A DNA stretch of 64,000 bases from an uncultured bacterium (GTDB taxonomy: Bacteria; Armatimonadota; UBA5829; DTLH01), in assembly GCA_964497515.1 (NCBI GenBank), contig CAZCCV010000002.1:62252-126251 (forward strand), in the 5' to 3' direction. A model generated the notes under the pieces. That model saw only the letters and a list, made by a program, of their open reading frames with translations, had not been told where the DNA came from and did not search any database. The translations under genes were made by a program, and so were the position numbers. This document shows positions 11,581 through 30,084 of this stretch, one piece after another (the first letter of the stretch is position 1; every line of letters starts with the position of its first letter).

Positions 11581-11715
11581 GGATTGTAAGTCTGGTCACT
11601 GATAAGTCTAGATACAAGAATACTGCTGTGAGTGTCGACGGATACTTCGAGCAGAGACCACTAAATCGTGTCAAAGGCTGACCAGGACACACCAGTCCGG
11701 GAGAGGTGTTCAAGT

Positions 11716-13498: not shown

Positions 13499-14692
13499 TT
13501 GGATCAGACGAACTATCAGCCGTCGCAGCAGATGCCGCAGCAGCCGGCTGCACAGATGACTCAGCCCAAGCAGGTCACTAAACCGCTGGAGATCGAAGAT
13601 GCACACGTCGACGATTTTCTAAGGATCGTTGTCGAGAAGGGTGCATCCGACTTGCATATCTGCGTTGGCGTTCCACCGATTATCAGGGTGGATGGTCAGT
13701 TGTTCCCTTTGAACTATGAGAAACTGACCCCCATCATCTCTCAGAGAATGATGTACGATATTCTTTCCGACGAACAGATTCAGCGGTTCGAATCCCAATA
13801 TGAGCTGGACTGCTCCTATTCTCTAGGCAAAATCGCGCGGTTTCGTGTAAACGTATATAAAGACAAGGGAACAGTTGCCGGTGCCTTCAGGTTGATTCCT
13901 ACGAAGATACCTACGATCCGCGATTTGAACCTGCCGCCTGTGCTCGAGGAACTCACCAGGCGACCAAGAGGAATTATTATTGTTACCGGACCTACGGGAA
14001 GCGGAAAATCCACTTCGCTTGCCGCTATGATCAATCAGATCAACAATGAGCGCAGTTTGCACATAATTACGATTGAAGATCCGGTAGAGTATCTGCATCA
14101 GCACAAGTATTGTGTCATCAACCAGCGCGAGGTCGGGCAGGACACACACGAGTTTGCAAATGCGCTCCGTGCTGCACTTCGAGAAGACCCGGATGTTATC
14201 TTGGTCGGTGAGATGAGAGACCTGGAGACGATGTCAAACGCGATTCGCGCTGCTGAGACCGGCCACCTTGTTTTTGCTACGCTGCACACCAACAGCGCGG
14301 CCTCGACAGTCGACCGAATAGTTGACTCATTCCCTGCAAACCAGCAGGATCAAATTCGATTGATGCTCTCTAACAGTCTGGAAGCAGTTCTCTGCCAGCA
14401 GCTCATACCGAGAGCAGGGATGCCAGGCAGAATCTGTGCTATGGAGGTCATGATTGCTACTCCGGCTATACGGAACCTGATACGTGAGGCCAAGAGCCAT
14501 CAGATCACATCTATCATACAGACGGGTGCAAACGTTGGCATGCAGACCATGGATCAGCACCTGAGAGACCTATATCAAAGAGGGGTCATCACATACGACG
14601 ATGCTATGACCAGAGCGATGAACCCTGAGGAACTGAAGAAGATGATTTCGGCGCCATCTGATCAGGCGTCTTCGCCACGAGGTGGCAGATAG
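13499..14692 (+). CDS. pilT: Type IV pilus retraction ATPase PilT (with about 28-aa Gln/Pro-rich N-terminal extension)
   Basis: ASDLHI...PPIIRVDG, Walker A GPTGSGKST, ITIEDPVEY, and the PilT signature AIRNLIRE followed by GMQTMDQ. TTG start at 13499 with GGGAG RBS; an internal ATG at 13532 is an alternative. Confidence 0.9.
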   Translation: MDQTNYQPSQQMPQQPAAQMTQPKQVTKPLEIEDAHVDDFLRIVVEKGASDLHICVGVPPIIRVDGQLFPLNYEKLTPIISQRMMYDILSDEQIQRFESQYELDCSYSLGKIARFRVNVYKDKGTVAGAFRLIPTKIPTIRDLNLPPVLEELTRRPRGIIIVTGPTGSGKSTSLAAMINQINNERSLHIITIEDPVEYLHQHKYCVINQREVGQDTHEFANALRAALREDPDVILVGEMRDLETMSNAIRAAETGHLVFATLHTNSAASTVDRIVDSFPANQQDQIRLMLSNSLEAVLCQQLIPRAGMPGRICAMEVMIATPAIRNLIREAKSHQITSIIQTGANVGMQTMDQHLRDLYQRGVITYDDAMTRAMNPEELKKMISAPSDQASSPRGGR

Positions 14693-14805: not shown

Positions 14806-16032
14806 ATGCCTAGTTTCCAGTATACAGTACGTGATGTAAACGGAACAATGATTCCTGGAACGGTAGAAGCGGACAGCGAAGACTTACTTCGTAGACGTTT
14901 ATCCGAGCAAGGATTCGAAGTTGTCGAAATCAAGGAGACAAAGACCGGCAAAAAGAAATCTCCTGGAACGGGGTTCGGAAGAGTAAAACTGAACGATCTC
15001 GCGGTGTTCTGTCGACAGTTCTCCACTATGATCGATGCCGGAGTCTCGCTTGTACGGTGTCTGGCCGTTCTTGCAGAACAGACGGTTTCTGCGAAGCTGA
15101 AAAGGATCATTTACGATCTACAGGCCGAAGTCGAGGCTGGGCAGACGCTCTCGAGAGCACTCGGAAAGTATCCGAATGTGTTCTCTAACTTGTTTGTCGG
15201 TCTCGTAAGAGCAGGTGAGGTTGGTGGTGTTCTTGAAGAAAGCTTGCAACGTTTAGCAGGATTCCTCGAGAAAGACCAGGAACTCAGGCGAAAAGTCCGA
15301 TCAGCTATGACATATCCAGTCATAGTCATGTTCGTGGCTTTGGGCATAGTTATATTCCTGGTTACCTTCATCCTTCCGAGTTTTATGACTTTGTTCGATG
15401 ACCTTGGTGTAAAGGAGTTCCCTGCTCCTACCGCGCTTCTCATGGCATTTAGCAACTTTTTGACCAGCAAATGGTACATTATGCTGATTGGACTGGTCAT
15501 CTTCGTAGTGGCATCGCGCGCGTTCTTGTCTACAAAAGTCGGTAAACGTTTGTTTGATAGGTTCAAACTGAAGGTTCCGGTTTTCGGAAACCTGAACCAC
15601 AAAATCGTTCTTGCCAGATTTTCAAGAACGCTCGGCACACTGCTTGCATCGGGTGTCCCTATTTTGCAGGCGTTGGAGACTGTCGCAGGGACTGTCTCCA
15701 ACGAGATTGTGAGTGATGCGATTTTGGAGGCTAGAGCTAGGATTAGAGAAGGAGACCGTATTGGAGATCCCCTTCAAAAGAGCAAATTGTTCCCGCCAAT
15801 GGTTGTTCAGATGATCTCGATTGGCGAGGAATCTGGAGCTCTCGACCCGATGCTTGCCAAAGTTGCAGACTTCTATGAATCTGAGGTTGATGCTACACTC
15901 GCGTCCCTTACGTCTGCTATTGAGCCTATTATGATCGTATTCTTGGGTGGTGCGGTTGGATTCATCGTTATTTCGATCTTCCTGCCGTTGATCTCTGTTA
16001 TCACGAGTTTGACTGGTGCTGGAGGCGAGTAG
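14806..16032 (+). CDS. pilC: Type IV pilus inner-membrane platform protein PilC (GspF family)
   Basis: Two GspF repeats, each with conserved cytoplasmic helices and TM segments (e.g., LSRALGKYPNVFSNLFVGLVRAGEVGG and the repeat EIVSDAILEARARIREG...MISIGEESG). AGGAGG RBS. Confidence 0.9.
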   Translation: MPSFQYTVRDVNGTMIPGTVEADSEDLLRRRLSEQGFEVVEIKETKTGKKKSPGTGFGRVKLNDLAVFCRQFSTMIDAGVSLVRCLAVLAEQTVSAKLKRIIYDLQAEVEAGQTLSRALGKYPNVFSNLFVGLVRAGEVGGVLEESLQRLAGFLEKDQELRRKVRSAMTYPVIVMFVALGIVIFLVTFILPSFMTLFDDLGVKEFPAPTALLMAFSNFLTSKWYIMLIGLVIFVVASRAFLSTKVGKRLFDRFKLKVPVFGNLNHKIVLARFSRTLGTLLASGVPILQALETVAGTVSNEIVSDAILEARARIREGDRIGDPLQKSKLFPPMVVQMISIGEESGALDPMLAKVADFYESEVDATLASLTSAIEPIMIVFLGGAVGFIVISIFLPLISVITSLTGAGGE

Positions 16033-16906
16033 CCTGATACCGTTTTGGCTAGGAGCCTTGATAGTTTTTGTCTACGGCACCGCGATTGGCAGCTTTTTGA
16101 ATGTTGTCATTTACCGGATGCCGCTAGACTTATCTATTGTGCGACCACCTTCTCATTGCCCGAAGTGCAATACACGGCTTCGGGCAATTGACCTTATTCC
16201 ACTGCTGAGCTTTCTGGTGCTCGGCAGGAAGTGTCGCTACTGTGGCGAGCCCATAGGATGGCGGTACTTTGGCGTCGAACTGTTGACCGGGCTTGCACTG
16301 CTGGCACTGTATGCCAAGTTCGGATTTGAGATTAATTTCTTTGTGTTTGCACTGTTTACATCGGCGCTTATTGCTGTTGTGTTTATTGATCTCGACCATT
16401 GGATTATTCCGGATCAGATCAACCTGTTCGGGGTGATTCTGGGTGTCGGGAGAGATATTCTTGGGTTTCTGTTGCACGAGGAGGGTCACGTTTTTCTCAG
16501 GATTCCTATCCCTGCAACGGAGATCAGTGTTCCGATGCTGTGGTCCGTCGTTGGGCTTCTCATCTGCGGTGGGATTTTCTATTTTATCGCGGTTGTTGGG
16601 GGGCTGGTCTTCAAGAAAGACGCGATGGGCGGCGGCGATATTAAGCTGGCGGCGGCGATTGGCGCGGTTATGTGTGGGTCGATCACTTCGTGGTTTGGGC
16701 TGGGACTTGCGCTGCTGTCGTTCTTCCTTGCTGTTTTTGTCGGCTCGATAATAGGTATCGGTATGAAAATAGCAGGGGCGAGTTCGGGGAAAGAGAATTA
16801 TCTTCCGTTTGGGCCGATGATGGTGATCGGTGTTTTCGCAACGTGGTTTGTTGGGCAACCGATGATCAAGTGGTATCTTGGATTTCTGCAGCGCGGAGGG
16901 ATGTAA
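16016..16906 (+). CDS. pilD: Prepilin peptidase (A24 family, PilD)
   Basis: GSFLNVVIYRMP; zinc-finger CPKCNTRL...CRYCGEPI; catalytic Asp regions (VFIDLDHWIIPD; GGGDIKLAAAIG). GTG start overlaps the pilC end. Confidence 0.9.
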   Translation: MLEASSLIPFWLGALIVFVYGTAIGSFLNVVIYRMPLDLSIVRPPSHCPKCNTRLRAIDLIPLLSFLVLGRKCRYCGEPIGWRYFGVELLTGLALLALYAKFGFEINFFVFALFTSALIAVVFIDLDHWIIPDQINLFGVILGVGRDILGFLLHEEGHVFLRIPIPATEISVPMLWSVVGLLICGGIFYFIAVVGGLVFKKDAMGGGDIKLAAAIGAVMCGSITSWFGLGLALLSFFLAVFVGSIIGIGMKIAGASSGKENYLPFGPMMVIGVFATWFVGQPMIKWYLGFLQRGGM

Positions 16907-17120: not shown

Positions 17121-17888
17121 ATGAAGACGGTGCGCGGCAAGCACGGATTCAGCCTTATTGAGCTTCTCACTGTAATTGCTATCATCGCCATTCTTGCGGC
17201 GATCATCTTCCCGGTTATGTCGAGCGTCAAAGCAGAAGCCAGGAAGACCAAATGTATGACGCAGCTTCAGCAGATCGCTTCTGCTATGAAGATGTTTCAG
17301 ACGGATAACCGCAAATACCCGGAGTCGCTGGGAGGCTTTGTTCAGTACGACGGCGAGGGAATTGTCCCGATGGAGCGCTCGCGTGGAGACGCGCTCTATC
17401 CGCAGTATGTGAAGAGCGTTAGCGTATTCCATTGCCCGGATTCTCCGGTTACCAACACCAATTCGGTAGTGAGAATCAGTGTTGGCGGTCAGAACTTCGA
17501 TTATTATGCATACGACAGCTACGATGTCTTTGTGCCGAATCCTGTAGAGCCAGGTGCGGTAGTGCCGGCTGGCATTCCGGATATTAGATACACCACGCAG
17601 TGGGCGGATAGTGTTGCGAGTGTTAGCCTGCTGCCTCCGAGCGCAGGTAAGTCAGATGGTGACGGACTGCGGCGGTACGACTTCAAACGTCAGCTCCATT
17701 TCCGCAACCCGTCGGATGATACTGTGGTTACGTGGTGCAGCTATCACGCTAAACAGGGTGACACCAAATCGATGGTGTTGGTGCTGTTCCTGGATGGACA
17801 TGTAGACAAGATTCCCGCTGTGCAGGTGCAGGGTGATCCTTCAACTGGCGCCGTTGGAAGCAGGCAGAGGACTTCTCCGAAGCTGTAG
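17121..17888 (+). CDS. Type IV pilin-like protein with prepilin N-terminal methylation motif and C-terminal H-X9-DG tail (DUF1559-type)
   Basis: Class III signal KHG|FSLIELLTVIAIIAILAAIIFPV with Glu at +5. C-terminal ...AKQGDTKSMVLVLFLDGHVDKIP matches the H-X9-DG tail of the large prepilin family of Planctomycetota/Verrucomicrobiota/Armatimonadota. Confidence 0.8.
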   Translation: MKTVRGKHGFSLIELLTVIAIIAILAAIIFPVMSSVKAEARKTKCMTQLQQIASAMKMFQTDNRKYPESLGGFVQYDGEGIVPMERSRGDALYPQYVKSVSVFHCPDSPVTNTNSVVRISVGGQNFDYYAYDSYDVFVPNPVEPGAVVPAGIPDIRYTTQWADSVASVSLLPPSAGKSDGDGLRRYDFKRQLHFRNPSDDTVVTWCSYHAKQGDTKSMVLVLFLDGHVDKIPAVQVQGDPSTGAVGSRQRTSPKL

Positions 17889-17982
17889 TGGCATTTTGAC
17901 TGGTGGTTCTGGGTAACCGCCAAGCCACGTTCAGGCATTGTGGCGGTTGCCCTGACGGTCACCTTTGATGGCGGAGGCGGCT

Positions 17983-19641
17983 ATGAGACTGATGAAAAAC
18001 AATCGAGGCACATCACTTGTTGAAGTGCTGGTTGTTATGGTGGTACTCCTGCTGGGGATTATGACCATCGTACGACTTTACCCAACGGGGTTCCAGTCGG
18101 TTCGACACGCGGAGAGTATAACCTTTGCCAACAGGCTCGCCCAGTACGAATTGGAGCGCTGGAAGAACAACTCAGCGAATCTGCCTGATGGCGTTCTTCC
18201 TATTGATGATTCTGGCGCTGTGCTGAACGATCAAAACGGCGGACCTCCGATTGTGGAAGACTACAACGGCGGTGTGCTGGTTTCCGATAACGCTACCACG
18301 TTCCGCCGAGTCATTGGCGAAACGACAAAAATCCCCTTTGGCGGATGGTCAATTGACAGCCCGTCCTCTGGTTCGATGTACGTTCTCGCCTTCGGCCCAA
18401 TCAGCAATACTGCGGGTTCTTTGGCTGTCCGCGGTGGTAATCTGACTAGAAGGGTCTTCGACTCAAGCGACGGCAGCATTCAACCGTGGGCGTACTTGAG
18501 AGGCTCTCAGTACGGTATCGACTACGGTGAACAGGGCGAAAAACCGCAGTTTTGCTTCCCTGTAGCTATGTCAGACAGGCAATACTTTATCTCTTACTCG
18601 TGGTGGGAGAGGGGTTCCGGCGAGCCCGTTATGAAGACTGCTACAAGCATTCCGGTGCGTGTTGCTGCCAATACTAGAGGCTGGATATCGCTGACTCAGA
18701 TACTAAACGATGCCGGAATGAGTGTTCCGACTGGCTTCATCGGTCTTGACCAGTACAGCGATACCGCTGCTAGGGGGTTCCTTGAGGTAGCAAACTTCTC
18801 TTCGGATGCTTACGAGTTCAAGCTGCTCGATCCTGTTCTTGGGATACTGTCGTTCAACCCTCTGGGCTACTCACAGACCGAGTTCGGACACTCGCTCGAA
18901 GCAAAGATCGACTACGATATCCTGGATCTCCAGATCATTCGCGAAGACAAGCGTGTTTCGCAGAGTGGGCCGTTTATCGTCAACCTCACACTTCATGACC
19001 TGAAAGAAACAGGTGTGAGTGTAGAAGTCAACGGCGATACATACCAAGGCATACATCCACCGGTCATCCCTGCGGGTGTTGACGTGATGGCCATTGACCT
19101 CGAAACACTGATGGCGATTCCGATAGAGAAAATCTGGATCGACTACAAGGCCGGTATAATTAATCTTCCAGCTACTGTTACGCTCGTCGGCGAGGGAAGC
19201 ACGGTGCCTAACATTTCACCTGCTGGACGCAATATTAGGTTCTACTACAAAGCCGAGGGTGATTGGTCGTTGCAGTTCCAGAAAGCGTATGTCCAGTATG
19301 AGAGACGCGATTCCGGAACTCTGGACTTCAAGTCTTATATGCCCGATGCTTCAGATTTCAGAAAGATCTGGCTGTCGGCGTGCAATGTAAATCATTCCAT
19401 TGCAGTAGACTACGACTATTTGGACAATAGCGGGCAGGTTCGAAAGGTAGTCGGTGAGAACCACAAGGCGACTGATGCTTTGGATTTGCTTGGCTCGACC
19501 AAGTGTACTTACATTACTTTGGATCACGATCCGATCCGCATTTATTCAGTGAATGGCGTGTCTGCACGCGCTAGAGTGCTATGGCGCGAAGGCGAGCGCT
19601 GGAGGCACGTCCAGCTCGATACGATTCTCACTCGCAAGTAG
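17983..19641 (+). CDS. Giant minor-pilin/pseudopilin-like protein (PilV-like position), 552 aa
   Basis: Prepilin signal NNRG|TSLVEVLVVMVVLLLGIMTIV with Glu+5; the remainder is a large beta-rich globular domain with no recognised family. The track ORF starts at 17965; ATG 17983 chosen. Confidence 0.7.
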   Translation: MRLMKNNRGTSLVEVLVVMVVLLLGIMTIVRLYPTGFQSVRHAESITFANRLAQYELERWKNNSANLPDGVLPIDDSGAVLNDQNGGPPIVEDYNGGVLVSDNATTFRRVIGETTKIPFGGWSIDSPSSGSMYVLAFGPISNTAGSLAVRGGNLTRRVFDSSDGSIQPWAYLRGSQYGIDYGEQGEKPQFCFPVAMSDRQYFISYSWWERGSGEPVMKTATSIPVRVAANTRGWISLTQILNDAGMSVPTGFIGLDQYSDTAARGFLEVANFSSDAYEFKLLDPVLGILSFNPLGYSQTEFGHSLEAKIDYDILDLQIIREDKRVSQSGPFIVNLTLHDLKETGVSVEVNGDTYQGIHPPVIPAGVDVMAIDLETLMAIPIEKIWIDYKAGIINLPATVTLVGEGSTVPNISPAGRNIRFYYKAEGDWSLQFQKAYVQYERRDSGTLDFKSYMPDASDFRKIWLSACNVNHSIAVDYDYLDNSGQVRKVVGENHKATDALDLLGSTKCTYITLDHDPIRIYSVNGVSARARVLWREGERWRHVQLDTILTRK

Positions 19642-19708: not shown

Positions 19709-21544
19709 ATGAAAAGGACTGGGGCAAGAGCTGGTTTTACCATAATTGAATTACTTGTGGTCATCACGATCACGGTCATGTTGTTGGGGCTTATTATCGG
19801 TCCGGTCGTTCAGACCTTCGGGTTGACTCGCCAGGCTCAGGCTATGGTGCAGGCTCAGGATACCGCGCGATCGACTCTTTCTATGATCAGTCGCGATCTG
19901 AGCCAAGCGATGTTCGTTTACGACAACTCGAACAGTGCGATGAACTTCCCGTGCATACAGCCTGATGGTGTGACGCCGGTAGTGCTCAGTGCACAGTATG
20001 GCAAGGTCGATATGATTCTACCTAAGCTAACGATGCACTGTAACAATCCGGATCATCATGACGGATCGCGCGATTATGAGCGAGGAGATGAGGCGTGGCC
20101 AAGATGCCCTGTCTGCGGTTCTGACGAAGTCGAGGCACGACCAAGGCAGCCATTAACGCCTGATGCCAAAATAGTGCGCTACTTCATCGGTTTGGTAGAT
20201 AACGATCCTGCTTCGATATCTGATGCAGCTCCGAATCCCGGCTACCGAGATTGGCCGGAGACCGGGTCTCCGCTGAACGGCTTCATCCTTTACAGGGCAG
20301 AGGTCAATCCATATGACGACTCTGAGGATCCGATGAGTGGGCACAACCTGTTCCGCTATGGTGCGGATGGCAATCCGATATTGGATGATCCTAATTTCTT
20401 CTATGATACGGACATTGCACCTAATGGGGAGCCATACTGGAAGAACTGGAAGTCGACGGCGAAGCCTGTTGGTTTGCAAACAGAGACGGATCTAGTCATA
20501 CTCCGTTTGAATAACGAAGAGACTGCTATTGTATCTCTCACACCGAGCGTTCGCTTCCAGCTTTCACAGGTCACGAACGACACATTTGAGCCGTCGCATA
20601 TTGCGGATGAGAGTGCAGAGTCTCCCATAAGTATTCCATCGGTGTTTAAAGCAACATACGGCGGGTGGGGAACCTCTACAGGACCATTCAATACCGACAT
20701 CTATAGCGTTACAGTATTCCGTCCTGGTGGAGCGGCTGGTGATGCTTGGTTTAGAACCAGATGGGACTGGAATGGCGCAACTAGCAGCTATCATCTCGTT
20801 ATATACAAATACACCGGTGGAGGGAGCAACGCCATATTCGATTGCACTGCTTACGAAAAGTCGGGAGTCTTTCCGGCGAGCGCACCGGACATTGCATTTT
20901 TGGTCGATCCGAACAGAGGCGAGGTCAGATTCGACTTCCCAGACTCGGATGTCATAAACGGTAACCACATAGTTGATATGAACAAACAGGTGCGTGACAC
21001 GTGGGGCGAACCTACAAGCGCACCGCGGCGAACGTATCGCCTGACCAAGTTCCGCAGTATCAATGCCAACGATCTGTTCCAGCCACGAATTGTGCCTGGG
21101 AGCGAGGTTGTTGTCGGCCCTGATATGTCACCGGACAAAGTGGTGATGGTGCCGGATGGTCACGGGAGTTACGTGGTTCAGACACTCAATCCTAACCCTG
21201 TGAGGTACGAAAGAGTGCCATTTAATCTCGGTGATCCGGGACGCAATCAATACAAAATCGATTATGGTATGGAAGACCTGGCGGGACAAGCCGTCGGGCG
21301 GATGATTTTCAGCCCGGCTTATGATGAGCCGATTCCAGAGGTTATGCCTGATGGTTCACCTGCGCAATTTGTGATTAGATACAAGTTCCAGTGTAACCGT
21401 GATCAGGACGTGCTTCAGGGCAACTACGCTACAAAGAGCCTGATGCAGGTTACAGTCGGTATTCGGTTCTACGACAGGCAGTCTGGCAAGCTGTATCCTC
21501 TGGAGCTCTCAGACAAGATCAAAGTCCGTAACCTGATGAGGTAG
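19709..21544 (+). CDS. Giant minor-pilin/pseudopilin-like protein (PilW-like position), 611 aa, with Cys/His-rich insert
   Basis: Prepilin signal ARAG|FTIIELLVVITITVMLLGLIIG with Glu+5; a Cys/His-rich insert lies at residues 82-136. Confidence 0.7.
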   Translation: MKRTGARAGFTIIELLVVITITVMLLGLIIGPVVQTFGLTRQAQAMVQAQDTARSTLSMISRDLSQAMFVYDNSNSAMNFPCIQPDGVTPVVLSAQYGKVDMILPKLTMHCNNPDHHDGSRDYERGDEAWPRCPVCGSDEVEARPRQPLTPDAKIVRYFIGLVDNDPASISDAAPNPGYRDWPETGSPLNGFILYRAEVNPYDDSEDPMSGHNLFRYGADGNPILDDPNFFYDTDIAPNGEPYWKNWKSTAKPVGLQTETDLVILRLNNEETAIVSLTPSVRFQLSQVTNDTFEPSHIADESAESPISIPSVFKATYGGWGTSTGPFNTDIYSVTVFRPGGAAGDAWFRTRWDWNGATSSYHLVIYKYTGGGSNAIFDCTAYEKSGVFPASAPDIAFLVDPNRGEVRFDFPDSDVINGNHIVDMNKQVRDTWGEPTSAPRRTYRLTKFRSINANDLFQPRIVPGSEVVVGPDMSPDKVVMVPDGHGSYVVQTLNPNPVRYERVPFNLGDPGRNQYKIDYGMEDLAGQAVGRMIFSPAYDEPIPEVMPDGSPAQFVIRYKFQCNRDQDVLQGNYATKSLMQVTVGIRFYDRQSGKLYPLELSDKIKVRNLMR

Positions 21545-21558
21545 AAGCGAGCACTATT

Positions 21559-24339
21559 ATGAATATTTACAATTGCGGCAGATTACGGCATAAAGGTGAG
21601 CAGGGTCAGTCTCTGATCCTTGCAGTTATAGTAATGTTCCTGCTGGTGTTTATCGGCGTGATTTTTGTTCTGCTTGTGGCTAGAAACCAGGGGCGCGCGG
21701 GACGGTCGCGAGATATGGTGCAGGCACAGGCTCTCGCTGAAGCCGGAATTCACTTTGCCGATTCAATGCTTACATCGAGCGAGGATGGGGCCGATTGGCG
21801 TCCTGAACCTGCAAATTTGGGGTTCGCGTGGGATCCGGCAACTGGCTACACTCCTACGGCGGATCTGCCCGATGTTGCCGAGAACCATCCCGACTTCAAA
21901 TGGTTGAGACCGTACCAGCCGGTTGATACAGACGTGACGGTTGGTGGTGCTACAGTGCGTGGCGCTATGGGGCCGTCGGGTGGCTTTACGGCTGTAGAGA
22001 CGGGCGGTGGCAGGTATCTGCTCCGTGTTAGCTATAATCCGGATCGAAATGATCCGATGTCGAAGTTTATCAAGATCGAATCAATCGGGCGCATTGGAAT
22101 TGTTGATTTCAATGACCCTACCACTTGGGGTGAGGACAACCGAATTCGTCGGGAATTCACGGCCTATAAGCCTATCGGAGTAACCGACTATATGCGCTTC
22201 GTCACCAACAAGGACAAGCGTTCGGCAGATATTCCTCTTGGCGCTGCAGGTTTTGATGTCAGCTATGGCTACTGTAAAGACCCTAACGACTGGCGGCCTG
22301 CTCCGATAAGAGTCAACGGAAATCTTGCTTGGACAGGCAGAGAGATTGATATCTATCTGGATGGCAGCACTACTCCAGACCTCGGGTTTGTTCCCACGAG
22401 TCTGGTTGAGGTTGCTGGCGATATCAAGCACGCTCTCAATCCTGAAGACAACGACAACCCCGCTAGGGTGTTTGTATTCAAAGTGGAAAACGGTGCGGCG
22501 AGCACTGCAATTCCTGTTCAGCCGAGCACAATTGGTTCTGGCTTTGATACTGTAAACGGTCTGTATCGAGATGGCTCAAATGATACTGGTCTTCAGCGGG
22601 AAGCCAGGGGAATCAAATACCTTGGCCCACCGAGTATAGAAGAAGTGTCGGGGCCCAACAAGATACCGCGATACATCGCGCTTACCAGAGATTCTGGCAA
22701 TTGGCTGCAGTCGAACAGTGGGTTTATGGTTAACAGCGGCCGCTACGGATGGGGAAGGGGCGTTTACATCGATAACGTTTCCGACTTGCAGCCGGAAAGT
22801 GAAACGCTCTTCGGTGGTTATACTCCTCGTGCCGACTGGATTAAGCCTAACAACCGTATGTCTTCATACTGGCAGGGGCCCTACTACGTGCCGCCTGGCG
22901 TAGTGATTTCACTCAACCCGTACGATACAGATGGCGATGGTCTGCCGGATATTACAATGACTCGCACAGATGTCGTTACTCGTGCGCGAGATCCTCTGTA
23001 CGGCAAGAAATCGATATGGTACGATGCGGCTGGAAACCCGATGCACGAAAAGGGTTCAACGATAACAATCCCTTATCCACAGGGTGATCAGACCTTTACC
23101 TACTGGCACGATGCCAATAACAACGGCGTGCACGAGTCCAGCGAGGATATGAGTATTTCAATTGATCGCAATGGTGTCATCTATGCTGCAGGCAACGTAC
23201 GTATTCGCGGTATGTTGGCCAAAGGAAAGCAGCTTACGGTGGTATCAGGTGGAATAATCTATATCGAAGGCAATGTGTTGAAGCACCGAGACTTGAATAC
23301 AGGTGTCGTTGATGAGACAAGTGCCATATCGCTTCTTGCGAGAGACTATGTGTGTGTGAATACTACTCAGTTCGTAGGTCTTCTAACCAGCGCCGGGCCG
23401 AGTTCATTCGTCTCCGATGCTGGAACCGGACAGGCTCCGTATAGTCAGCTAATCACACCGGAGCCAGCGACTACGTTCTTTACAACGTTCTCATACGGCC
23501 CGAATACTGGCAATGCCGGTCTCGATTCAATGCTCTTTGTTCGCCAGGCCGGCGAGTATGGCCCGGCATATATCAATATGTGGCTCAACAGACGCCTAGG
23601 AGGAAACCAGGGGTTGGTCGCTATTGGCACGGATGATGGTGGAAATATCGGCCCGCTTGGTTCTTGGGTATATGGTTGTGGAGACCCACGATTCTCTTTA
23701 GAGGGGACAGGCGTTTCAGGGCTGTTTGAGCACAAAGTGTGGAACCTGACGAATGCATTTACAGGTAACGGGCTTCACACTGGTGTAGGTGTGCCGAACT
23801 ACTTCGAAGTTGCACTCGATCAGTCTACATATATGCGAAACAACTATCTGCTTTCGGCGTTTACGATTCAGCCGTTGGATGTTAGGATTGAGGCTGCGAT
23901 GTTTGCGCAGAACAGGTCGTTCTTTGTTATTCCGGGATCGTGGTTCAATCAGAATGCGACCGATACCCCGGATGTCAGCACGGGTTCTCGTGATGTTCCG
24001 AGACCTCGCGGCGTTGACAAGAGATGGCCGTTCTACAGTGACGCGCTCGATACTAAGATTACAATCGACGGTGCGATAACTGAAAATCTTCCGGCATCCA
24101 CTGCTGATGTCAGCGAATGGTACTCCAAATGGAGCAATATTCCTGCTACGTATGGCAGTTCCGGAGTGGACACTGCTCACGGCGGGGATGGACTTACTTT
24201 TGTATACGACCCAATGCTGGGTTATCCGGTCGATTCTTTCGGTAGACCTGTGCGAACGGACGAATACGGCAGAGCGCTTCCTATTACGCCGCGCCTGCCT
24301 ATGTGCCGTGATCTCTACTACTATGGCGAACCCACCTAA
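21559..24339 (+). CDS. PilX/GspK-like pilin-like protein lacking Glu+5, 926 aa
   Basis: N-terminus GEQG|QSLILAVIVMFLLVFIGVIFVLLVARNQ then RDMVQAQALAEAGIHFADSML resembles the PilX_N / GspK N-terminal domain (hydrophobic helix, A-x-AEAG motif). Like GspK it has no Glu at +5. Long beta-rich C-terminal region. Confidence 0.6.
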   Translation: MNIYNCGRLRHKGEQGQSLILAVIVMFLLVFIGVIFVLLVARNQGRAGRSRDMVQAQALAEAGIHFADSMLTSSEDGADWRPEPANLGFAWDPATGYTPTADLPDVAENHPDFKWLRPYQPVDTDVTVGGATVRGAMGPSGGFTAVETGGGRYLLRVSYNPDRNDPMSKFIKIESIGRIGIVDFNDPTTWGEDNRIRREFTAYKPIGVTDYMRFVTNKDKRSADIPLGAAGFDVSYGYCKDPNDWRPAPIRVNGNLAWTGREIDIYLDGSTTPDLGFVPTSLVEVAGDIKHALNPEDNDNPARVFVFKVENGAASTAIPVQPSTIGSGFDTVNGLYRDGSNDTGLQREARGIKYLGPPSIEEVSGPNKIPRYIALTRDSGNWLQSNSGFMVNSGRYGWGRGVYIDNVSDLQPESETLFGGYTPRADWIKPNNRMSSYWQGPYYVPPGVVISLNPYDTDGDGLPDITMTRTDVVTRARDPLYGKKSIWYDAAGNPMHEKGSTITIPYPQGDQTFTYWHDANNNGVHESSEDMSISIDRNGVIYAAGNVRIRGMLAKGKQLTVVSGGIIYIEGNVLKHRDLNTGVVDETSAISLLARDYVCVNTTQFVGLLTSAGPSSFVSDAGTGQAPYSQLITPEPATTFFTTFSYGPNTGNAGLDSMLFVRQAGEYGPAYINMWLNRRLGGNQGLVAIGTDDGGNIGPLGSWVYGCGDPRFSLEGTGVSGLFEHKVWNLTNAFTGNGLHTGVGVPNYFEVALDQSTYMRNNYLLSAFTIQPLDVRIEAAMFAQNRSFFVIPGSWFNQNATDTPDVSTGSRDVPRPRGVDKRWPFYSDALDTKITIDGAITENLPASTADVSEWYSKWSNIPATYGSSGVDTAHGGDGLTFVYDPMLGYPVDSFGRPVRTDEYGRALPITPRLPMCRDLYYYGEPT

Positions 24340-24404: not shown

Positions 24405-27400
24405 ATGATGATGAGACGAAAAATCCCAATCATAGCCACCTTGGCGGTTCTGATTTCAGTGGCGCTGACGACAGGTGTGTTTGCAGCCGGCCAGTTATAT
24501 GTGGATAAACAGCGAACCATTAACGCTGGTGTGCTTGTGCCTACAAGGCCAAACTCTACACTGGCCGATCCTGCGGCTCCATTCGTCTTTTATATAATGG
24601 GTGCGAGAGAGGATGCAAAACCGCACGCTTGGAACTTCGTTAATCCTCTAGCCGGCGGAAGAGACAGCTTCAAAAATGTGAAAGACTATTGGCTGGTTTC
24701 ACTGCCGCAGACTACGTTTGAAAATCTTATCAAGTTCGATGTGCTGTATCTCAGTACTACTCAGCTTGTTAACTTCCGGATGGCGGACAAGGACAAACTG
24801 CGCAGATTCGTCGACGGCGGTGGTTGTCTGTGGGTAGACGGCGGAGCTGGAATGACGTTTTCGAGCGTGCTGGGCGATGCCTTCTTCCTGCCTCAGATGA
24901 ACTTTGTGTCTGGCGGCTCCGGCATACCTATGCTCGCACAGCGCTTGCATCCGGTTGTGACCAACCCATTTTGGCTGAACCAGGATGAGATAACAATACT
25001 TGGCCAGGGGCCAACAACGATTAATCCGGGGTACGATAGCGGTTTTGGTTCGATGCCCGATCCAAACACACTCTCTCCCGTTGTTTTGCTAAGCGGTGGA
25101 CTCGGCGCTGCAAAACCGACTATAGCTACTGTCGAATATGGTAGCGGCAGGATTGTTGTCACGTCGCATTTTATCGGAGGAATGATAGAACGTCCGGTGA
25201 CTGGCAATACAGCTGTGAACGTAATCACTACTCAGAACTCGAATCTGATGTTTGCCAACACATCGGCATTGAGATTTGCCTATAACGTGGTTGCATACGG
25301 CAGTTCCTCTACATCGTTCCGCAAGAACTACCGTCGTAGTGGGGTGTCCATTGAGAATCTGGCGGCTCCGCTCGATCCAAAATGGCGCGCTCCTATAGTC
25401 TCTCCTGGAGGAGCTACGATAGAGAATAGCCCAGTCATCTGGAAGAATATGATCTTCGTGACCAGTGGCAACACGATTTACGCATTCGATGCCAATCCCG
25501 AGTTCGATCTGGATCAGAACGGCAATCTGGATGATGGTGTGCCGAATCCAGGGCAGCCTTTCGATTTGGTGTGGTCTTATTCGTGTCCCGGCCAGATATC
25601 GAGCCCGACAGTAGCTACGATGTTAGACCCTCGGACATCAGGGCAACTCTCTGCATCTGATTTTATTATGGTCAACTGTACCGATGGCAGGGTATATGTC
25701 TTTGATACAGTGCCGGTTGATTCTTCAACAGGCATGATTGCCACTAACCCCGGCGCTGCACAGCCGATACCTTCGTTCTGGAAGGTAACAATGAACGTTG
25801 GATCAGGCCCGCTGCTGCCACCAGTTGCTCAGAACGGGTGGATCTACTGTGTTGGAAGTGACGGCGTCGTTTATGCGTACAGCCCGATTATATCTGCTGG
25901 TTCAGGCACATTCGATCTGCCTGCGGACTCTTGGGCAGTTCCACTGTTTCCTGGTACCAGCGGTTACAATGTGAGTGTGAAGTCTGGGCCGCTCCTAGGT
26001 TACGTCAAGAATCAGACTAATGGAGCGATTGTTCAGGTTTTGTACGTGGTCGCAAGGCCGCCTATGATCTCAACCGACCCCAACGCAGGGAACCCAAACG
26101 ATTGCATCTATGCGCTTCCTCTTTATGTGTGCAGCGATCGCCTTATGCCTAGAAACCCGAACGCGCTTAGGGGTTCTCCTACGGGAGCAATACCGTTTAG
26201 AATCGGGTTCTTGAGTGGAATGGGCACCAATCTGCCTGTGTCGAAGTATCCAGCACCTGAAGTCTGGGCTTATAACCCTGTATATAACGCTGCCGATGCT
26301 GATGCTGTAACTCCGGTACCTGTAGAGGCCGATTTCCAGCAGTCGAATACCGGCACAGTGAACATAACAGTGACTCCGCCCAATAGAATTGGTCCGAACA
26401 TTCGTGTCTATGCGACATATGGCATTGACTACAGTGCATTCCAGAGTTCAATGTCAGCTCCGGTTCCGATGTACGAGCTGAAGCCAAAAGTTGGAGGCTC
26501 TGTTGATATTATTAACCTGAGTATCAATGCTACTCCCGCTATGGGGTCTAACGATACTCTCTATATGGGTGTTAAGAATGATTCCAGTATAGGCGACCCG
26601 GGATCCGGGCACGCTTGGGTGTATTCGGTGTGGTTCGATGGCAACCCATCTGCCGCACGACTGAAGTGGAATTACTTCCTCCACGGCGGCGGTCTTATGC
26701 AGGATCCTACTAGCACAGTCTCATCGACAGGCAGAGTCCCTCTCGATGCTGCTGATCCTTCTCGCCTTTGGGGTGTGAGGGCTAAAGATCCTGTAACAGG
26801 AGCAATTGTGCCCGTGCGGCATTTGGAAGTCCGTTCAACTCCTGCAGTCACAAGAGATAAGGTATTTGCAATAGCGACAACGGATAATCCAGGAAGCCCG
26901 AATCTTCCACGCTCATATTTGCTCTGCTTCAAGGCGGACTCGAGCTTTGTTATTCGCCTGAATCGTTCGCTTTATGATACTAGCAACAACCAGCGAATGA
27001 GTGTTAAGCTGTGGCAGCCGGACTTCCTGTTCAACACGGCAAATGTGGCTCAATCTCCGCTGCTCACATCTGTTCAGGTGCCTTCGGATATGATTGACTA
27101 CAATTCCGGCACTGTAACGATTAACGACTTTGCCAAGCTCAGAGTTCAGGGTTCGTCGATCTCAGGTGTGCAGACCAGTCCGTTGACACCATCACTCCCT
27201 GTTTGGGTGTTCATTAATAATCAGCCTGTTCCTATCAATGAAGTCGATCTGTCCAGTTGGGACAATCTGCTGTGGGCGCTTCCAATACCGAACAATGGTA
27301 GCCACGTGACCAGTGTGTCGTCATCGCCGATAGTGTTGGGCGATTACGTGTATTTTGTCAGCGATGATGGCTATCTGTACTCCGTGCTGGCAGAAGTCAA

Positions 27401-28880
27401 TCCGCCCAACCCCAAGACAAAAATGCTGGATGTCACGGCGAAAGACTCTGAATCCTGGTTTGTCGTGCAGCAGATTGATCCGGCGGGTGCATCGGGCACA
27501 AACAGGCGGAATCTGTCGCTTGCCGGCGGGAATGGATTGCTGGCAGTCCCTACGGATTCCGGATTATATGTGTTCAAGAACCAGACAACGCTTGTTACCG
27601 ACAACAGACGAGTGATGGAGATCGGCAGCGACGGAAGAGTGATTTGGTCATGCGACTCTGTCATTCAGCCCGAGATAATTAGTGACTCTGTGCCGCCTGT
27701 TTACGGTATCCTCCCTCAGGAGCTGAATAAGCCGCTTGTTGCACAGAAACTGGGGTCTTCCGACTACCTTGTTGTCGACTCCGGAAATGACAGAGTGATA
27801 CGAATGGACAAAGGTGGCCAGGTCACCTGGTCGCTAAGCCAGTTCATCGACCCACAGGGGCTTCTCCGCTCCGGCGAACCGCTTCGTCTGAAGAATCCGA
27901 GCGATGCTGTAGTGTGGGGTGAGTTTGAGAAGCGCGATGGCAAATGGTACTATCTGTACCACTGTCTCGTAGCCGACAGCGGAAATTTCCGGATTGTCGA
28001 TATTGTCAACCGCTTCAATGCCAACGACAAGATGCAGATTCTAAGTCCATATGGCGTAGATTCGAACGGAAGACCGATTCACGAATTGAACTGGGTGTCG
28101 CAGACTACCAGCAGGGACAAACGATACTCATACAACTCTATAGAGCTAGTGCGCGGCAATCCGGGCGGAGACCCGAGCCGCTTGATGAATTGGATATGGG
28201 CGTCCACCTCGAACTATGGGCTCGGAACCGCGACCGATCCGACACAGAAAGAGAGTACAGGAGGAGGTCAGCTCGGTGGTGCTATCATCAGTATGGAGTA
28301 CCGCGAGAGCGCATCAGCAAACTCGGCTGAATGGAATTATCTGGACGGAAGAGTCGATGGACAGTTGACCACACTCCTTGATAACAAAGGCGCCGGGCCC
28401 GCGATTGCACTTTCGCGACCGAGTTACTTCACTGTGCTCGATTCCGGCACTCAACGGCTGCTGATATGCGATTCTTCCGCTGTATACGTGACGGAGGGAC
28501 GCGACATTCAGTGGAAGTTCACCTCGGAGGACTATCGAAATATGCCGCGCGAGGTGATAAATGAGTTCACACAGACTCCTGTCCCGAGACCGGTTCGAAT
28601 ACCGATTCCGTTTTCTCCACAGCGTGCGCAGATGCTTGACGACGGTACGTGCCTTATTGTAAATAGCTTTGCTGGCAGGATGTACGACAAGGCGGGCAGC
28701 AAGTTTACCGGAGAGATATTCAGAGTCGATTCTAGTCACAATCTGCGCTGGTTCACTCCAAGGCTCTGGTGGGTGCCAGATACACCGACCAGCCAGCCAG
28801 GGGATGACGGCGTATTCGTTCAGAAGACGTTGAATGCTCCCAATATGGATCAGCCTACTTCGGCACAGCGGCTGAAATAG
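24405..28880 (+). CDS. 1491-aa secreted multi-domain protein: GATase1/ThuA-like N-domain + PQQ-like and NHL-like beta-propeller repeats (PilY1-like position)
   Basis: Signal peptide MMMRRKIPIIATLAVLISVALTTGVFAAG. N-terminal block (FDVLYLSTT...RFVDGGGCLWVDGGAG) resembles ThuA/DUF4159 class-I glutamine-amidotransferase-like folds. Repeated PQQ/BamB-like segments (TIYAFDANPEF, RVYVFDTVP, WIYCVGSDGVVYAYSP, YVYFVSDDGYLYSV). C-terminal NHL-like repeats (YLVVDSGNDRVIRMD, HCLVADSGNFRIVDI, LICDSSAVYVTEG). Confidence 0.6.
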   Translation: MMMRRKIPIIATLAVLISVALTTGVFAAGQLYVDKQRTINAGVLVPTRPNSTLADPAAPFVFYIMGAREDAKPHAWNFVNPLAGGRDSFKNVKDYWLVSLPQTTFENLIKFDVLYLSTTQLVNFRMADKDKLRRFVDGGGCLWVDGGAGMTFSSVLGDAFFLPQMNFVSGGSGIPMLAQRLHPVVTNPFWLNQDEITILGQGPTTINPGYDSGFGSMPDPNTLSPVVLLSGGLGAAKPTIATVEYGSGRIVVTSHFIGGMIERPVTGNTAVNVITTQNSNLMFANTSALRFAYNVVAYGSSSTSFRKNYRRSGVSIENLAAPLDPKWRAPIVSPGGATIENSPVIWKNMIFVTSGNTIYAFDANPEFDLDQNGNLDDGVPNPGQPFDLVWSYSCPGQISSPTVATMLDPRTSGQLSASDFIMVNCTDGRVYVFDTVPVDSSTGMIATNPGAAQPIPSFWKVTMNVGSGPLLPPVAQNGWIYCVGSDGVVYAYSPIISAGSGTFDLPADSWAVPLFPGTSGYNVSVKSGPLLGYVKNQTNGAIVQVLYVVARPPMISTDPNAGNPNDCIYALPLYVCSDRLMPRNPNALRGSPTGAIPFRIGFLSGMGTNLPVSKYPAPEVWAYNPVYNAADADAVTPVPVEADFQQSNTGTVNITVTPPNRIGPNIRVYATYGIDYSAFQSSMSAPVPMYELKPKVGGSVDIINLSINATPAMGSNDTLYMGVKNDSSIGDPGSGHAWVYSVWFDGNPSAARLKWNYFLHGGGLMQDPTSTVSSTGRVPLDAADPSRLWGVRAKDPVTGAIVPVRHLEVRSTPAVTRDKVFAIATTDNPGSPNLPRSYLLCFKADSSFVIRLNRSLYDTSNNQRMSVKLWQPDFLFNTANVAQSPLLTSVQVPSDMIDYNSGTVTINDFAKLRVQGSSISGVQTSPLTPSLPVWVFINNQPVPINEVDLSSWDNLLWALPIPNNGSHVTSVSSSPIVLGDYVYFVSDDGYLYSVLAEVNPPNPKTKMLDVTAKDSESWFVVQQIDPAGASGTNRRNLSLAGGNGLLAVPTDSGLYVFKNQTTLVTDNRRVMEIGSDGRVIWSCDSVIQPEIISDSVPPVYGILPQELNKPLVAQKLGSSDYLVVDSGNDRVIRMDKGGQVTWSLSQFIDPQGLLRSGEPLRLKNPSDAVVWGEFEKRDGKWYYLYHCLVADSGNFRIVDIVNRFNANDKMQILSPYGVDSNGRPIHELNWVSQTTSRDKRYSYNSIELVRGNPGGDPSRLMNWIWASTSNYGLGTATDPTQKESTGGGQLGGAIISMEYRESASANSAEWNYLDGRVDGQLTTLLDNKGAGPAIALSRPSYFTVLDSGTQRLLICDSSAVYVTEGRDIQWKFTSEDYRNMPREVINEFTQTPVPRPVRIPIPFSPQRAQMLDDGTCLIVNSFAGRMYDKAGSKFTGEIFRVDSSHNLRWFTPRLWWVPDTPTSQPGDDGVFVQKTLNAPNMDQPTSAQRLK

Positions 28881-28953
28881 GTTTGACATCGATAACAGTG
28901 CGAGTGGTGATGCTTTTCGGCCGCACCACTCGTTGCTGTGTACGGAACTGAAA

Positions 28954-30084
28954 ATGCCGAGCCCAAAAGCCGCTTACATCCACATTCCATTCTGTCGTTC
29001 AAAGTGCTTCTACTGTGATTTCAACTCGTATCCGGGAATGGAAGTTGAGGCAGATGAATATATCACAGCGCTTCTTGCTGAGATAGATGCATCTTGGGTC
29101 GATAGCAGCATCCTTCAAACTGTATACATAGGTGGAGGTACTCCAACGGTTCTCGCGGCAGCGCATTTATCTCGAGTGCTCGATGCACTGAAACACAAGT
29201 TCCGATTATCTCTTGATGCCGAGACTACCGTTGAAGCTAACCCGGGCACTGTCGACAACAGCTACCTCAGAAGTCTTCTATCTGCTGGATTCAATCGCCT
29301 CAGCATCGGGGTGCAGTCTTTCGATGATGGCACACTAAAACAACTCGGCCGAATCCACAGTGCTGACGAGGCCCTTAGCGCGTTTGAGACCGCGCGTAAT
29401 GTCGGGTTCACAAACATCGGTATCGATCTCATGTATGCTCTTCCGGAGCAGACGCTCTCGAACTGGCAAAGCACTTTGAACACTGCAATTGCTCTTCGGC
29501 CAGAGCATGTATCACTTTACGAGCTTACGGTGGAGGAGGGGACACCTTTCGGAGATTCCCACTCAAAGAGTCAACTTGTGCTGCCAGACGAGGATCTGCA
29601 GATAGAAATGTATCAGGCAGCGATTAACACACTGACTTCGGTAGGTTACGAACAATATGAAATATCCAATTTCGCGCTTGCAGGCCGCCGTTCGCGTCAC
29701 AATCAGGTGTACTGGCGAAACGACCCTTACTATGGATTTGGCGCAGGTGCTACGGGCTACGTAAATGGAACCCGTTACAGTAACGCAGCGCATCCATCTG
29801 AGTATATTTCGAGAATGGAGTCATCTGGCAATGCTGTAGTCACAACCGAAAACATTTCTGGCCGACGGTCAATGGGGGAGACTATTATGCTTGGGCTTCG
29901 CATGCTTGATGGTGTGGATCTACACGCGTTTCAAGAGCGGTATTCAGCTGATTTGTTGTCGATTTATGTGGAAGAAGTTGCCCGATTCACCCGTAAAGGG
30001 TTGCTGCAGGTGAAAGATGACCATTTGCAGCTTACTTCTTCTGGGTTGCTTCTAGCAAACGAGGTTTCTGCAGCGTTTCTCTAG
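28954..30084 (+). CDS. hemW: Radical SAM heme chaperone HemW (oxygen-independent coproporphyrinogen-III oxidase-like)
   Basis: YIHIPFCRSKCFYCDFNS (CxxxCxxC radical-SAM cluster motif), GGGTPT, and the HemW-type C-terminal domain. ATG at 28954; an in-frame TTG at 28933 is an alternative. Confidence 0.85.
   Translation: MPSPKAAYIHIPFCRSKCFYCDFNSYPGMEVEADEYITALLAEIDASWVDSSILQTVYIGGGTPTVLAAAHLSRVLDALKHKFRLSLDAETTVEANPGTVDNSYLRSLLSAGFNRLSIGVQSFDDGTLKQLGRIHSADEALSAFETARNVGFTNIGIDLMYALPEQTLSNWQSTLNTAIALRPEHVSLYELTVEEGTPFGDSHSKSQLVLPDEDLQIEMYQAAINTLTSVGYEQYEISNFALAGRRSRHNQVYWRNDPYYGFGAGATGYVNGTRYSNAAHPSEYISRMESSGNAVVTTENISGRRSMGETIMLGLRMLDGVDLHAFQERYSADLLSIYVEEVARFTRKGLLQVKDDHLQLTSSGLLLANEVSAAFL

Follow-up and report, generated by a model that had tools for sequence, protein, structure and literature searches.

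A probable cap minor pilin with a predicted β-solenoid body in a type IVa pilus operon of Armatimonadota

The 926-aa protein encoded in a pilus operon of an uncultured Armatimonadota bacterium is probably the cap minor pilin, i.e., the first-assembled and tip-most subunit, of a type IVa pilus (T4aP), a functional equivalent of PilX and GspK with a build resembling that of ComZ and of the cyanobacterial solenoid PilX/HpsA proteins. As such, it adds a phylum that has hardly been studied to the range of an already known type of pilus tip and does not represent a new kind of machine. Its gene closes a series of four pilin genes in the operon, which reads PilB-PilT-PilC-PilD-pilin(255)-pilin(558)-pilin(611)-926-aa protein-1491-aa secreted protein (Table 1). 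This gene order was kept in distant homologues and in about 70 (71) Armatimonadota loci.

Table 1. Features of the pilus operon and of the 926-aa protein. Positions refer to the window, i.e., the whole 64,000-nucleotide (64-kb) stretch of DNA that was analysed.
Feature	Position	Strand	Remarks
Extension ATPase PilB, MshEN N-terminal domain	11668..13485	+	Best match type IV-A PilB
Retraction ATPase, PilT/PilU family	13499..14692	+	TIGR01420, 510 bits against a cut-off of 319
Platform protein PilC (T2SSF x2)	14806..16032	+	Closest to Thermus and Myxococcus T4P PilC
Prepilin peptidase PilD (A24_N_bact + Peptidase_A24)	16016..16906	+	Four genes upstream of the 926-aa protein gene
255-aa pilin, G↓FSLIE, GspG/PilA-like N-terminus, DUF1559/H-X9-DG-type body	17121..17888	+	
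558-aa minor pilin, G↓TSLVE, PilV-like N-terminus	17965..19641	+	
611-aa minor pilin, G↓FTIIE, HpsC / Verru_Chthon-C / GspH/GspG-like N-terminus	19709..21544	+	PilW/GspJ slot by gene order; conserved upstream neighbour
926-aa putative cap-type minor pilin (ComZ/PilX-like)	21559..24339, including stop codon	+	ORF list and translation
Leader peptide, residues 1-16 (MNIYNCGRLRHKGEQG)	21559..21606	+	Ends in invariant Gly16
Hydrophobic α1N, residues 17-41 (QSLILAVIVMFLLVFIGVIFVLLVA)	21607..21681	+	25 residues; Leu21 at +5 instead of Glu
Continuous N-terminal α-helix (pilin α1), residues 17-73	21607..21777	+	DSSP, both AF2 models
β-sheet part of pilin-like head, residues ~74-205	21778..22173	+	
β-rich C-terminal body, residues ~206-926	22174..24336	+	ComZ/ice-binding-protein-like β-solenoid and CBM-like β-sandwich
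DxDxDG-like loop, residues 456-464	22924-22950	+	Candidate Ca-binding; within C-terminal body
1491-aa protein, N-terminal Sec-type signal/TM segment, DUF4159-like region, PQQ-like β-propeller	24405..28880	+	PilY1 position

The ORF starts with an ATG, and its translation opens with MNIYNCGRLRHKGEQG followed by QSLILAVIVMFLLVFIGVIFVLLVARN. The short basic leader ending in Gly and the hydrophobic run behind it (QSLILAVIVMFLLVFIGVIFVLLVA) have the form of a class III signal, with a predicted prepilin-peptidase site between Gly16 and Gln17. Numbered from this junction, residue +5 is Leu21, and the motif AQALAEAG occupies residues 56-63 (nucleotides 21724-21747). The prepilin-like hydrophobic helix, the AQALAEAG motif and the Leu in place of Glu at +5 that had been claimed in the first-pass annotation were therefore all present in the translation. 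A true start downstream of 21559, which would have spoken against a prepilin, was set aside because inspection of the sequence revealed no in-frame ATG, GTG or TTG between 21559 and the Gly16 codon; the homologues, moreover, conserve the sequence from Gly16 on.

More than 195 homologues were found, nearly all of them in Armatimonadota. The family falls into 879 clusters at 50% identity, is present in 199 species-level genomes, has no Pfam domain and is labelled 'hypothetical' almost everywhere. A census of 263 family sequences showed the motif in 234. Among these, residue -1 is Gly in 226 and Ala in 8, usually with basic residues just before it, residue +1 is Gln in 230 and Phe in 4, and residue +5 is Ile, Val or Leu in 220 and Glu in none. 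The four members with the canonical Phe at +1 also have Leu at +5 (e.g., KG↓FTLIL). In an alignment of 70 sequences with a mean column identity of 37%, G16, Q17 and L19 (the +3 Leu) are invariant, and an invariant Gln at +1 is unusual among bacterial prepilins. Judged from these alignments, the conservation of the N-terminal motif lies far beyond chance.

The lack of Glu5 in the 926-aa protein and in 234/234 family members, together with its presence in all three upstream pilins (255, 558 and 611 aa), which share the pattern G↓(F/T)(S/T)(L/I)(I/V)E, corresponds to the cap class. Tip complexes are capped by a subunit without Glu5 (PMC10191384), and both PilX, which touches PilY1, and GspK lack this residue (PMC7541494). 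The loss of Glu5 had been taken as diagnostic of a cap; according to these studies it is characteristic of the cap subunit, but it is not diagnostic by itself. The gene is also the last of the minor pilin genes and adjoins the PilY1-position gene in a conserved order. Behind a PilV-like and an HpsC/GspJ-like minor pilin and ahead of a large signal-peptide protein with a propeller, it occupies the PilX slot of FimU-PilV-PilW-PilX-PilY1 operons (PMC7541494).

The presence of PilT indicates that the system is a T4aP rather than a type II secretion system (T2SS). No PilMNOPQ genes were found within the 64-kb window. The 255-aa pilin is a candidate for the major pilin or an adapter, and the 611-aa pilin matches the HpsC model (E 1.3e-10); neither the 558-aa nor the 611-aa pilin gave anything significant against PDB sequences. 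The 1491-aa protein has no PilY1 match in Pfam or NCBIfam and no PDB sequence match, and a downstream neighbour of 1300-1750 aa is conserved across the loci. Scans for tRNA and Rfam families gave nothing bearing on the 926-aa protein, promoter-like sites did not exceed the shuffled expectation, and no convincing terminator was found between the pilin genes.

Curated sequence profiles did not reach their thresholds. PilX_N (PF14341) aligned with residues 15-64, including the AEAG motif, over model positions 1-50 of 51, with 12.7 bits (E 0.13-0.29) against a gathering threshold of 25.5 bits. When 40 family N-termini were scanned against Pfam, 15 gave a PilX_N match over the full model length at E<=1 (best E 0.0014), all below 25.5 bits, and most Pfam matches (holins and DUFs, for example) were noise that reflects TM segments in general. 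Pfam 'Tad' was hit in 4 of the 40 (E>=0.11), and a TadG/TadE-like anchor was rejected because the machinery is T4a-type. The closest curated model for the N-terminus of the 926-aa protein was NCBIfam GspK (NF037980), which matched residues 15-95 only, with 11.1 bits against a cut-off of 130 (E 0.21). The protein matched neither the T2SSK Pfam domain nor N_methyl (PF07963) or TIGR02532 GFxxxE (Pfam E<=0.1, NCBIfam E<=1), nor HpsA in NCBIfam at E<=1. Curated motif models of the N_methyl/GFxxxE type are matched by the three neighbouring pilins; for a protein without Glu5 and Phe1 the missing match is expected. A search of PDB sequences with the family profile returned no ComZ (6QVI, E<=10), GspK or pilin, only two chance-level glycoprotein matches with E >2. 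Aligning the N-domain alignment with a single E. coli GspK sequence by hhalign brought the Gly-1 register into line, but the probability of 7.7% makes this unusable as evidence of homology. The earlier assignment to a GspK/PilX-type cap is right in substance, considering the signal peptide, the gene position and the ComZ-like fold, with PilX_N and GspK matches that stayed below threshold.

The AF2 model of the 926-aa protein (pLDDT 91) predicts a lollipop fold, with a long N-terminal α-helix on an antiparallel β-sheet. The helix is unbroken over 57 residues, and the pilin-type sheet behind it resembles pilins most closely in structure; the fold matches of the N-domain are mostly T2SS pseudopilins. 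A pilin domain and a large ice-binding-protein-like β-solenoid are predicted in one chain, and the last 20 residues, which end in a strand at about residues 921-923, are highly conserved. In the whole-chain fold search the best match was ComZ, a β-solenoid tip pilin, in agreement with the elaborated tip structure suggested from the sequence, although the β-solenoid could account for most of this match. Mean-field DCA of residues 40-235 against 820-926, aimed at a possible return of the C-terminal strand to the pilin sheet, was dominated by gap-gap covariation in a first run, and a second run on gap-free columns (Neff ~241) gave no strand-ladder patterns and no trustworthy contacts.

We propose that the preprotein enters the cytoplasmic membrane via its hydrophobic α1N, and that the PilD homologue encoded in the operon would then remove the 16-residue basic leader after Gly16. 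The mature protein may nucleate a priming complex whose other putative members are the two Glu5-bearing minor pilins of 611 and 558 aa and the 255-aa pilin. At the supposed tip position no subunit would sit above it, so Glu5 would not be needed and Leu21 could take its place. The β-solenoid and β-sandwich body of ~720 residues would be too bulky for the shaft and would be exposed at the pilus tip or plug, where it probably binds a ligand and/or serves as the docking site for the 1491-aa propeller protein, a PilY1 analogue; the precedents for a ligand are polysaccharide and DNA. PilB would extend the fibre below the cap, and PilT would retract it. It counts against a cap that a tip of this size together with a 1491-aa partner would have to pass a secretin, that no curated profile reached threshold and that Gln at +1 is atypical.

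Other readings were considered. The protein could be a minor pilin without being the cap, either a core subunit of the GspI/GspJ type or an accessory modular pilin that is built in further down the tip complex or along the fibre and presents an adhesive module, as PilB and PilC of Streptococcus sanguinis do. We consider this unlikely, because Glu5 is missing throughout the family and kept in the three neighbours, the two genes upstream already occupy the HpsC/GspJ-like and PilV-like slots, and the gene directly precedes the PilY1-position gene. Moreover, on steric grounds a ~720-residue body fixed to a pilin domain would hardly fit anywhere except at the tip, as was argued for ComZ (PMC6561018).

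It is similarly improbable that the protein is not processed as a pilin at all and instead spans the cytoplasmic membrane as a bitopic protein whose signal anchor stays uncleaved, serving as a periplasmic or surface assembly factor or as an adhesin with the pilus machine. Neither the invariant Gln at +1 nor the lack of Glu5 fits the prepilin consensus, the N-terminal Pfam matches were mostly generic TM noise, and the N_methyl and IV_pilin_GFxxxE profiles did not match; ComZ itself was missed by PilFind (PMC6561018). However, the near-invariant Gly at -1, with basic residues before it, is correctly spaced from the hydrophobic stretch, some family members have the canonical KG↓FTLI, the operon contains a prepilin peptidase, and the 57-residue helix leads into a sheet that resembles pilins best. 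The reading to which we give the least credence, as highly improbable, is a T2SS-like endopilus in which the 926-aa protein would be a pseudopilus tip that pushes or recognises substrates and the 1491-aa protein its cargo. That T2SS GspK is the curated model nearest to the N-terminus (E 0.21) and that the N-domain fold matches are mostly T2SS pseudopilins would fit such a system, as would the view that PilY1 is an analogue of T2SS substrates (PMC7541494). Against it stand a bona fide PilT/PilU retraction ATPase well above its cut-off, the MshEN-containing PilB of type IV-A affinity, a PilC closest to those of Thermus and Myxococcus T4P, the absence of GspC/L/M genes within the 64-kb window, and the fimbriae seen in cultured Fimbriimonas (PMC4072686).

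The assignment of a cap pilin gives a role to a large protein family known almost everywhere as hypothetical. Solenoid-bearing cap pilins, represented by Thermus ComZ and cyanobacterial PilX/HpsA, are now seen throughout Armatimonadota, which points to an old and widespread alternative to the small proteobacterial PilX. The occurrence of a solenoid cap beside a giant PilY1-position protein is also relevant to the suggested replacement of PilY1 by the solenoid as tip plug, and the tip pilin, its putative partners and the candidate Ca-binding loop are concrete targets for the few cultivated Armatimonadota. A bolder idea, which we regard as rather doubtful, is a hypertrophied, phylum-specific tip machine of ~3,600 residues (the 558-, 611- and 926-aa pilins and the 1491-aa propeller protein), in which the solenoid and CBM-like modules would form more than a plug, namely a functional head, for example for grasping or processing polysaccharide or for receiving DNA, beside a retained PilY1 analogue, with Gln at +1 reflecting a distinct processing or capping chemistry. 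If true, the pairing of a functional head with a retained PilY1 analogue would have no described counterpart in Thermus or cyanobacteria.

The 926-aa protein is roughly five times larger than PilX by the ~170-200 residues given for PilX in the first-pass annotation, and, as had been noted at first sight, far larger than GspK (327 aa in E. coli K-12). GspK (PDB 3CI0, 5VTM) carries an α-helical insertion domain where the 926-aa protein has a β-solenoid and β-sandwich body; since it lacks such an insertion, the protein is GspK-like in role and not a member of that family. The T4aP PilX of P. aeruginosa and M. xanthus (PMC7541494) shares with it the slot before PilY1, the lack of Glu5 and a PilX_N region aligned end to end. 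The modular pilins PilB and PilC of S. sanguinis carry other modules (vWA or lectin) with another attachment; the likeness is at fold level only, as it is for the tapirins of Caldicellulosiruptor, which are not pilins. ComZ of Thermus thermophilus (PDB 6QVI) is a tip pilin whose GspK-like pilin domain carries a β-solenoid (PMC6561018), and DNA binding is its demonstrated activity. It has no detectable sequence similarity to the 926-aa protein when the family profile is compared with the PDB, and its solved chain has 518 residues; the 926-aa protein, unlike ComZ, has an additional CBM-like β-sandwich signal and is followed by the 1491-aa PilY1-position protein. Cyanobacterial PilX proteins, including the HpsA-type 'PilX-EPS', are cap pilins without Glu5 that have a bulky triangular β-solenoid inserted in the pilin fold, and one of their subfamilies has grown strongly through additional domains (bioRxiv 10.64898/2026.02.12.705559). 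Both phylum and sequence family differ from those of the 926-aa protein, which has no HpsA match; the likeness to the cyanobacterial Hps system extends to the neighbouring 611-aa pilin, through its HpsC match. Cyanobacteria generally lack PilY1, for which the solenoid has been proposed as a replacement (bioRxiv 10.64898/2026.02.12.705559), whereas Armatimonadota keep a giant gene in the PilY1 position right beside the solenoid-bearing protein.

The reading frame of the 926-aa protein begins with ATG, and no alternative in-frame start codon occurs in the sequence between 21559 and the Gly16 codon. Because conservation among the homologues also runs from Gly16 onward, a true start further downstream is ruled out. 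The translation, MNIYNCGRLRHKGEQG/QSLILAVIVMFLLVFIGVIFVLLVARNQ...AQALAEAGI (slashes mark cleavage junctions), has a basic leader of 16 residues ending in Gly, followed by a hydrophobic stretch of 25 residues. Counted from the predicted junction Gly16/Gln17, the +5 residue is Leu21, and AQALAEAG occupies residues 56-63. The first-pass annotation had described a prepilin-like N-terminus with Leu instead of Glu at +5 and this motif, and all three features proved to be real.

The homologues recovered by a database search number more than 195 and are 830-990 aa long; none has a Pfam domain, nearly every one is labeled 'hypothetical', and Armatimonadota MAGs are the source of almost all of them. The family comprises 879 clusters at 50% identity (E<=1e-3) and 199 species genomes. 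It is previously uncharacterized and phylum-wide in Armatimonadota, and no relevant paper was found in the literature on it. G16, Q17 and L19 are invariant in a 70-sequence alignment (mean column identity 37%). In a census that takes in distant representatives of 1000-1200 aa, 234 of 263 sequences carry the N-terminal motif; the others are fragments, gene calls truncated at the N-terminus, or variants of the motif missed by the pattern. Among these 234, position -1 is Gly (226) or Ala (8), position +1 is Gln (230) or Phe (4, e.g., KG/FTLIL), and position +5 is Ile, Val or Leu in 220 and Glu in none. Judged from these sequences, the motif is not a chance pattern. The invariant Gln17 (window 21607-21609) is atypical, as the +1 residue of bacterial prepilins is usually Phe, Met or a small/hydrophobic one. 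Full-length members were also found in two loci from MAGs labeled Propionibacteriaceae and Sedimentisphaerales (L014, DIVW01000042.1, and L033, DATKWR010000502.1, respectively); since the family is otherwise strictly distributed in Armatimonadota, mis-binning of these contigs, not transfer, is the probable explanation.

The full-length protein matched no Pfam family at E<=0.1. Its N-terminal 120 residues aligned with PilX_N over model positions 1-50 of 51 (residues 15-64), at 11.6-12.7 bits, below the gathering score of 25.5. PilX_N was matched by 15 of 40 family N-termini (best E 0.0014), and the other repeated Pfam matches among them were generic transmembrane noise. The NCBIfam GspK model matched residues 15-95 with an E-value of 0.21 and 11.1 bits (cut-off 130). 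Alignment of the family with Escherichia coli K-12 GspK (327 aa) by hhalign placed NEQRG/VALLI over KGEQG/QSLIL, which is the correct register, but with a probability of only 7.7%, and the family profile found nothing among PDB sequences. None of the profile searches placed the N-terminus in an unrelated TM-anchored family. The sequence evidence is consistent with a cap pilin, but sub-threshold.

Genes of the pilus operon, in order
Feature	Position	Strand	Remarks
PilB	11668-13485	+	MshEN domain
PilT/PilU ATPase	13499-14692	+	bona fide; 510 bits, cut-off 319
PilC	14806-16032	+	
Prepilin peptidase (PilD)	16016-16906	+	
255-aa pilin		+	G/FSLIE; N-terminus GspG/PilA-like, body DUF1559-type
558-aa pilin	17965-19641	+	G/TSLVE; PilV-like
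611-aa pilin	19709-21544	+	G/FTIIE; N-terminus HpsC / Verru_Chthon-C / GspH/GspG-like
926-aa protein	21559-24339	+	ATG start, 926 codons
1491-aa protein	24405-28880	+	PilY1 position; N-terminal Sec-type signal/TM segment

The pilin genes are separated by spacers of 14-76 nt, and a terminator scan found no convincing terminator among them. The order of PilD, three Glu5 pilins (~250-300, ~550-700 and ~570-790 aa), the family member and a 1300-1750-aa protein is kept in distant homologues, and it was also found in 71 loci of Fimbriimonadales, Chthonomonadales, Armatimonadaceae and Abditibacteriota. Gene order puts the 611-aa pilin in the PilW/GspJ slot, and the operon by analogy follows the FimU/PilV/PilW/PilX/PilY1 logic of T4aP operons, in which the 926-aa protein takes the PilX slot. 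The 558- and 611-aa pilins have no recognizable domain past the N-terminal helix and exceed E. coli GspH, GspI and GspJ (about 125-195 aa) severalfold in length; the tip set as a whole appears hypertrophied, not the cap alone. The MshEN domain of the PilB homologue, together with its match to the c-di-GMP-binding motif model NF053729 (37.3 bits, just below the cut-off of 38), suggests that pilus extension is under c-di-GMP control. No PilMNOPQ genes were found in the 64-kb window; PilQ, PilM and fimbriae have been reported in the cultured relative Fimbriimonas (PMC4072686).

In the 1491-aa protein, residues 106-153 are DUF4159-like and residues 1049-1159 match a PQQ_2 beta-propeller; it has no PilY1/PilC match in Pfam/NCBIfam and no match among PDB sequences. 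A counterpart of 1300-1750 aa lies 3' of the family gene in almost all related loci, and by position the protein may be a non-homologous PilY1 analogue. In many Armatimonadota loci (e.g., L001 17140-22718, L003 19040-22832), the PilY1-position gene is followed by a third giant gene, encoding about 1750-2500 aa with Golvesin_C and PQQ-like repeats; in the window this gene is absent, and its place is taken by genes for a HemN-type radical SAM protein (28933-30084) and a ferritin. Just upstream of the operon, a 237-aa PEP-CTERM protein (10679-11392, +), together with a 751-aa ORF (4830-7085, +) that has no Pfam domain and weakly matches an XrtV accessory model (E 0.014), hints at an exosortase-sorted surface protein set. 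A selenocysteine synthase gene, SelA (34747-36174, -), implies selenoprotein use in the source organism; it adjoins the sole tRNA of the window, tRNA-Leu(CAG) (36249-36334, -), and no tRNA-Sec was found in the 64 kb.

The missing Glu5, the PilX gene slot, the pilin N-domain and the ComZ-like solenoid body support the cap-pilin reading of the first-pass annotation, and we consider it likely that the protein serves as cap pilin in the T4aP of Armatimonadota. The PilD of the operon would cleave it, and together with the two Glu5 pilins of roughly 600 aa it would nucleate a priming complex, with its body, some 720 residues, displayed at the pilus tip. This body would plug or cap the fibre; ligand binding and/or docking of the 1491-aa protein are probable further roles. 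Of this scheme, the present analysis shows the motif, its conservation, the synteny and the predicted folds, while cleavage, tip location, partners and ligand are inferred. A minor pilin other than the cap is improbable, the support for it being confined to GspI-type fold scores that are equal and to two database names. An uncleaved membrane anchor, to which the missing N_methyl match and the odd Gln at +1 would point, is similarly unlikely, being hard to square with the invariant Gly at -1, the family members having KG/F, and the pilin fold. That the protein is the tip of a T2SS-type pseudopilus is very doubtful, because PilB and PilC are T4P-type and the presence of PilT favors a retractile pilus over a T2SS.

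Lower-ranked structural matches of this candidate cap pilin include beta-helix adhesins, tapirins among them. Residues 456-464, DTDGDGLPD (window 22924-22950), form an acidic loop of DxDxDG-like type. Its conservation across 70 sequences is moderate (D456 59/70, D/N458 58/70, G459 41/70, D464 45/70), and it is perhaps reminiscent of Ca2+-binding loops; PilY1 is regulated by a Ca-binding site. The minor-pilin tip complex has a capping subunit without Glu5 (PMC10191384). Glu5 is missing in both PilX and GspK, and PilX lies at the apex, contacting PilY1 (PMC7541494). ComZ, a GspK-like pilin domain with an inserted solenoid resembling ice-binding proteins, was placed at the tip on a steric argument, and its binding of DNA and PilA2 was shown (PMC6561018). 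A preprint on cyanobacterial PilX proteins, whose pilin fold carries an inserted beta-solenoid and of which one expanded subfamily is homologous to HpsA, ascribes the same architecture to ComZ (10.64898/2026.02.12.705559). By analogy, we infer that the 926-aa protein works like PilX/GspK/ComZ. However, it is not a strict member of the GspK family, lacking the helical insertion domain and scoring far under the cut-off, and it lies under the Pfam PilX_N threshold. Homology to ComZ or HpsA could not be detected in its sequence, and it resembles ComZ in architecture and fold only, as judged from predicted models. In a covariation analysis of the pilin domain against the C-terminal region, no reliable contacts emerged that bear on a ComZ-type insertion of the solenoid. 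Solenoid-bearing cap pilins have been known since 2019 in Thermus (PMC6561018) and now in cyanobacteria (10.64898/2026.02.12.705559). The present protein differs from them in its size (926 aa, with family members reaching about 1200 aa), an additional beta-sandwich signal, the invariant +1 Gln, two partner pilins that are just as oversized, and its co-occurrence with a giant PilY1-position protein.
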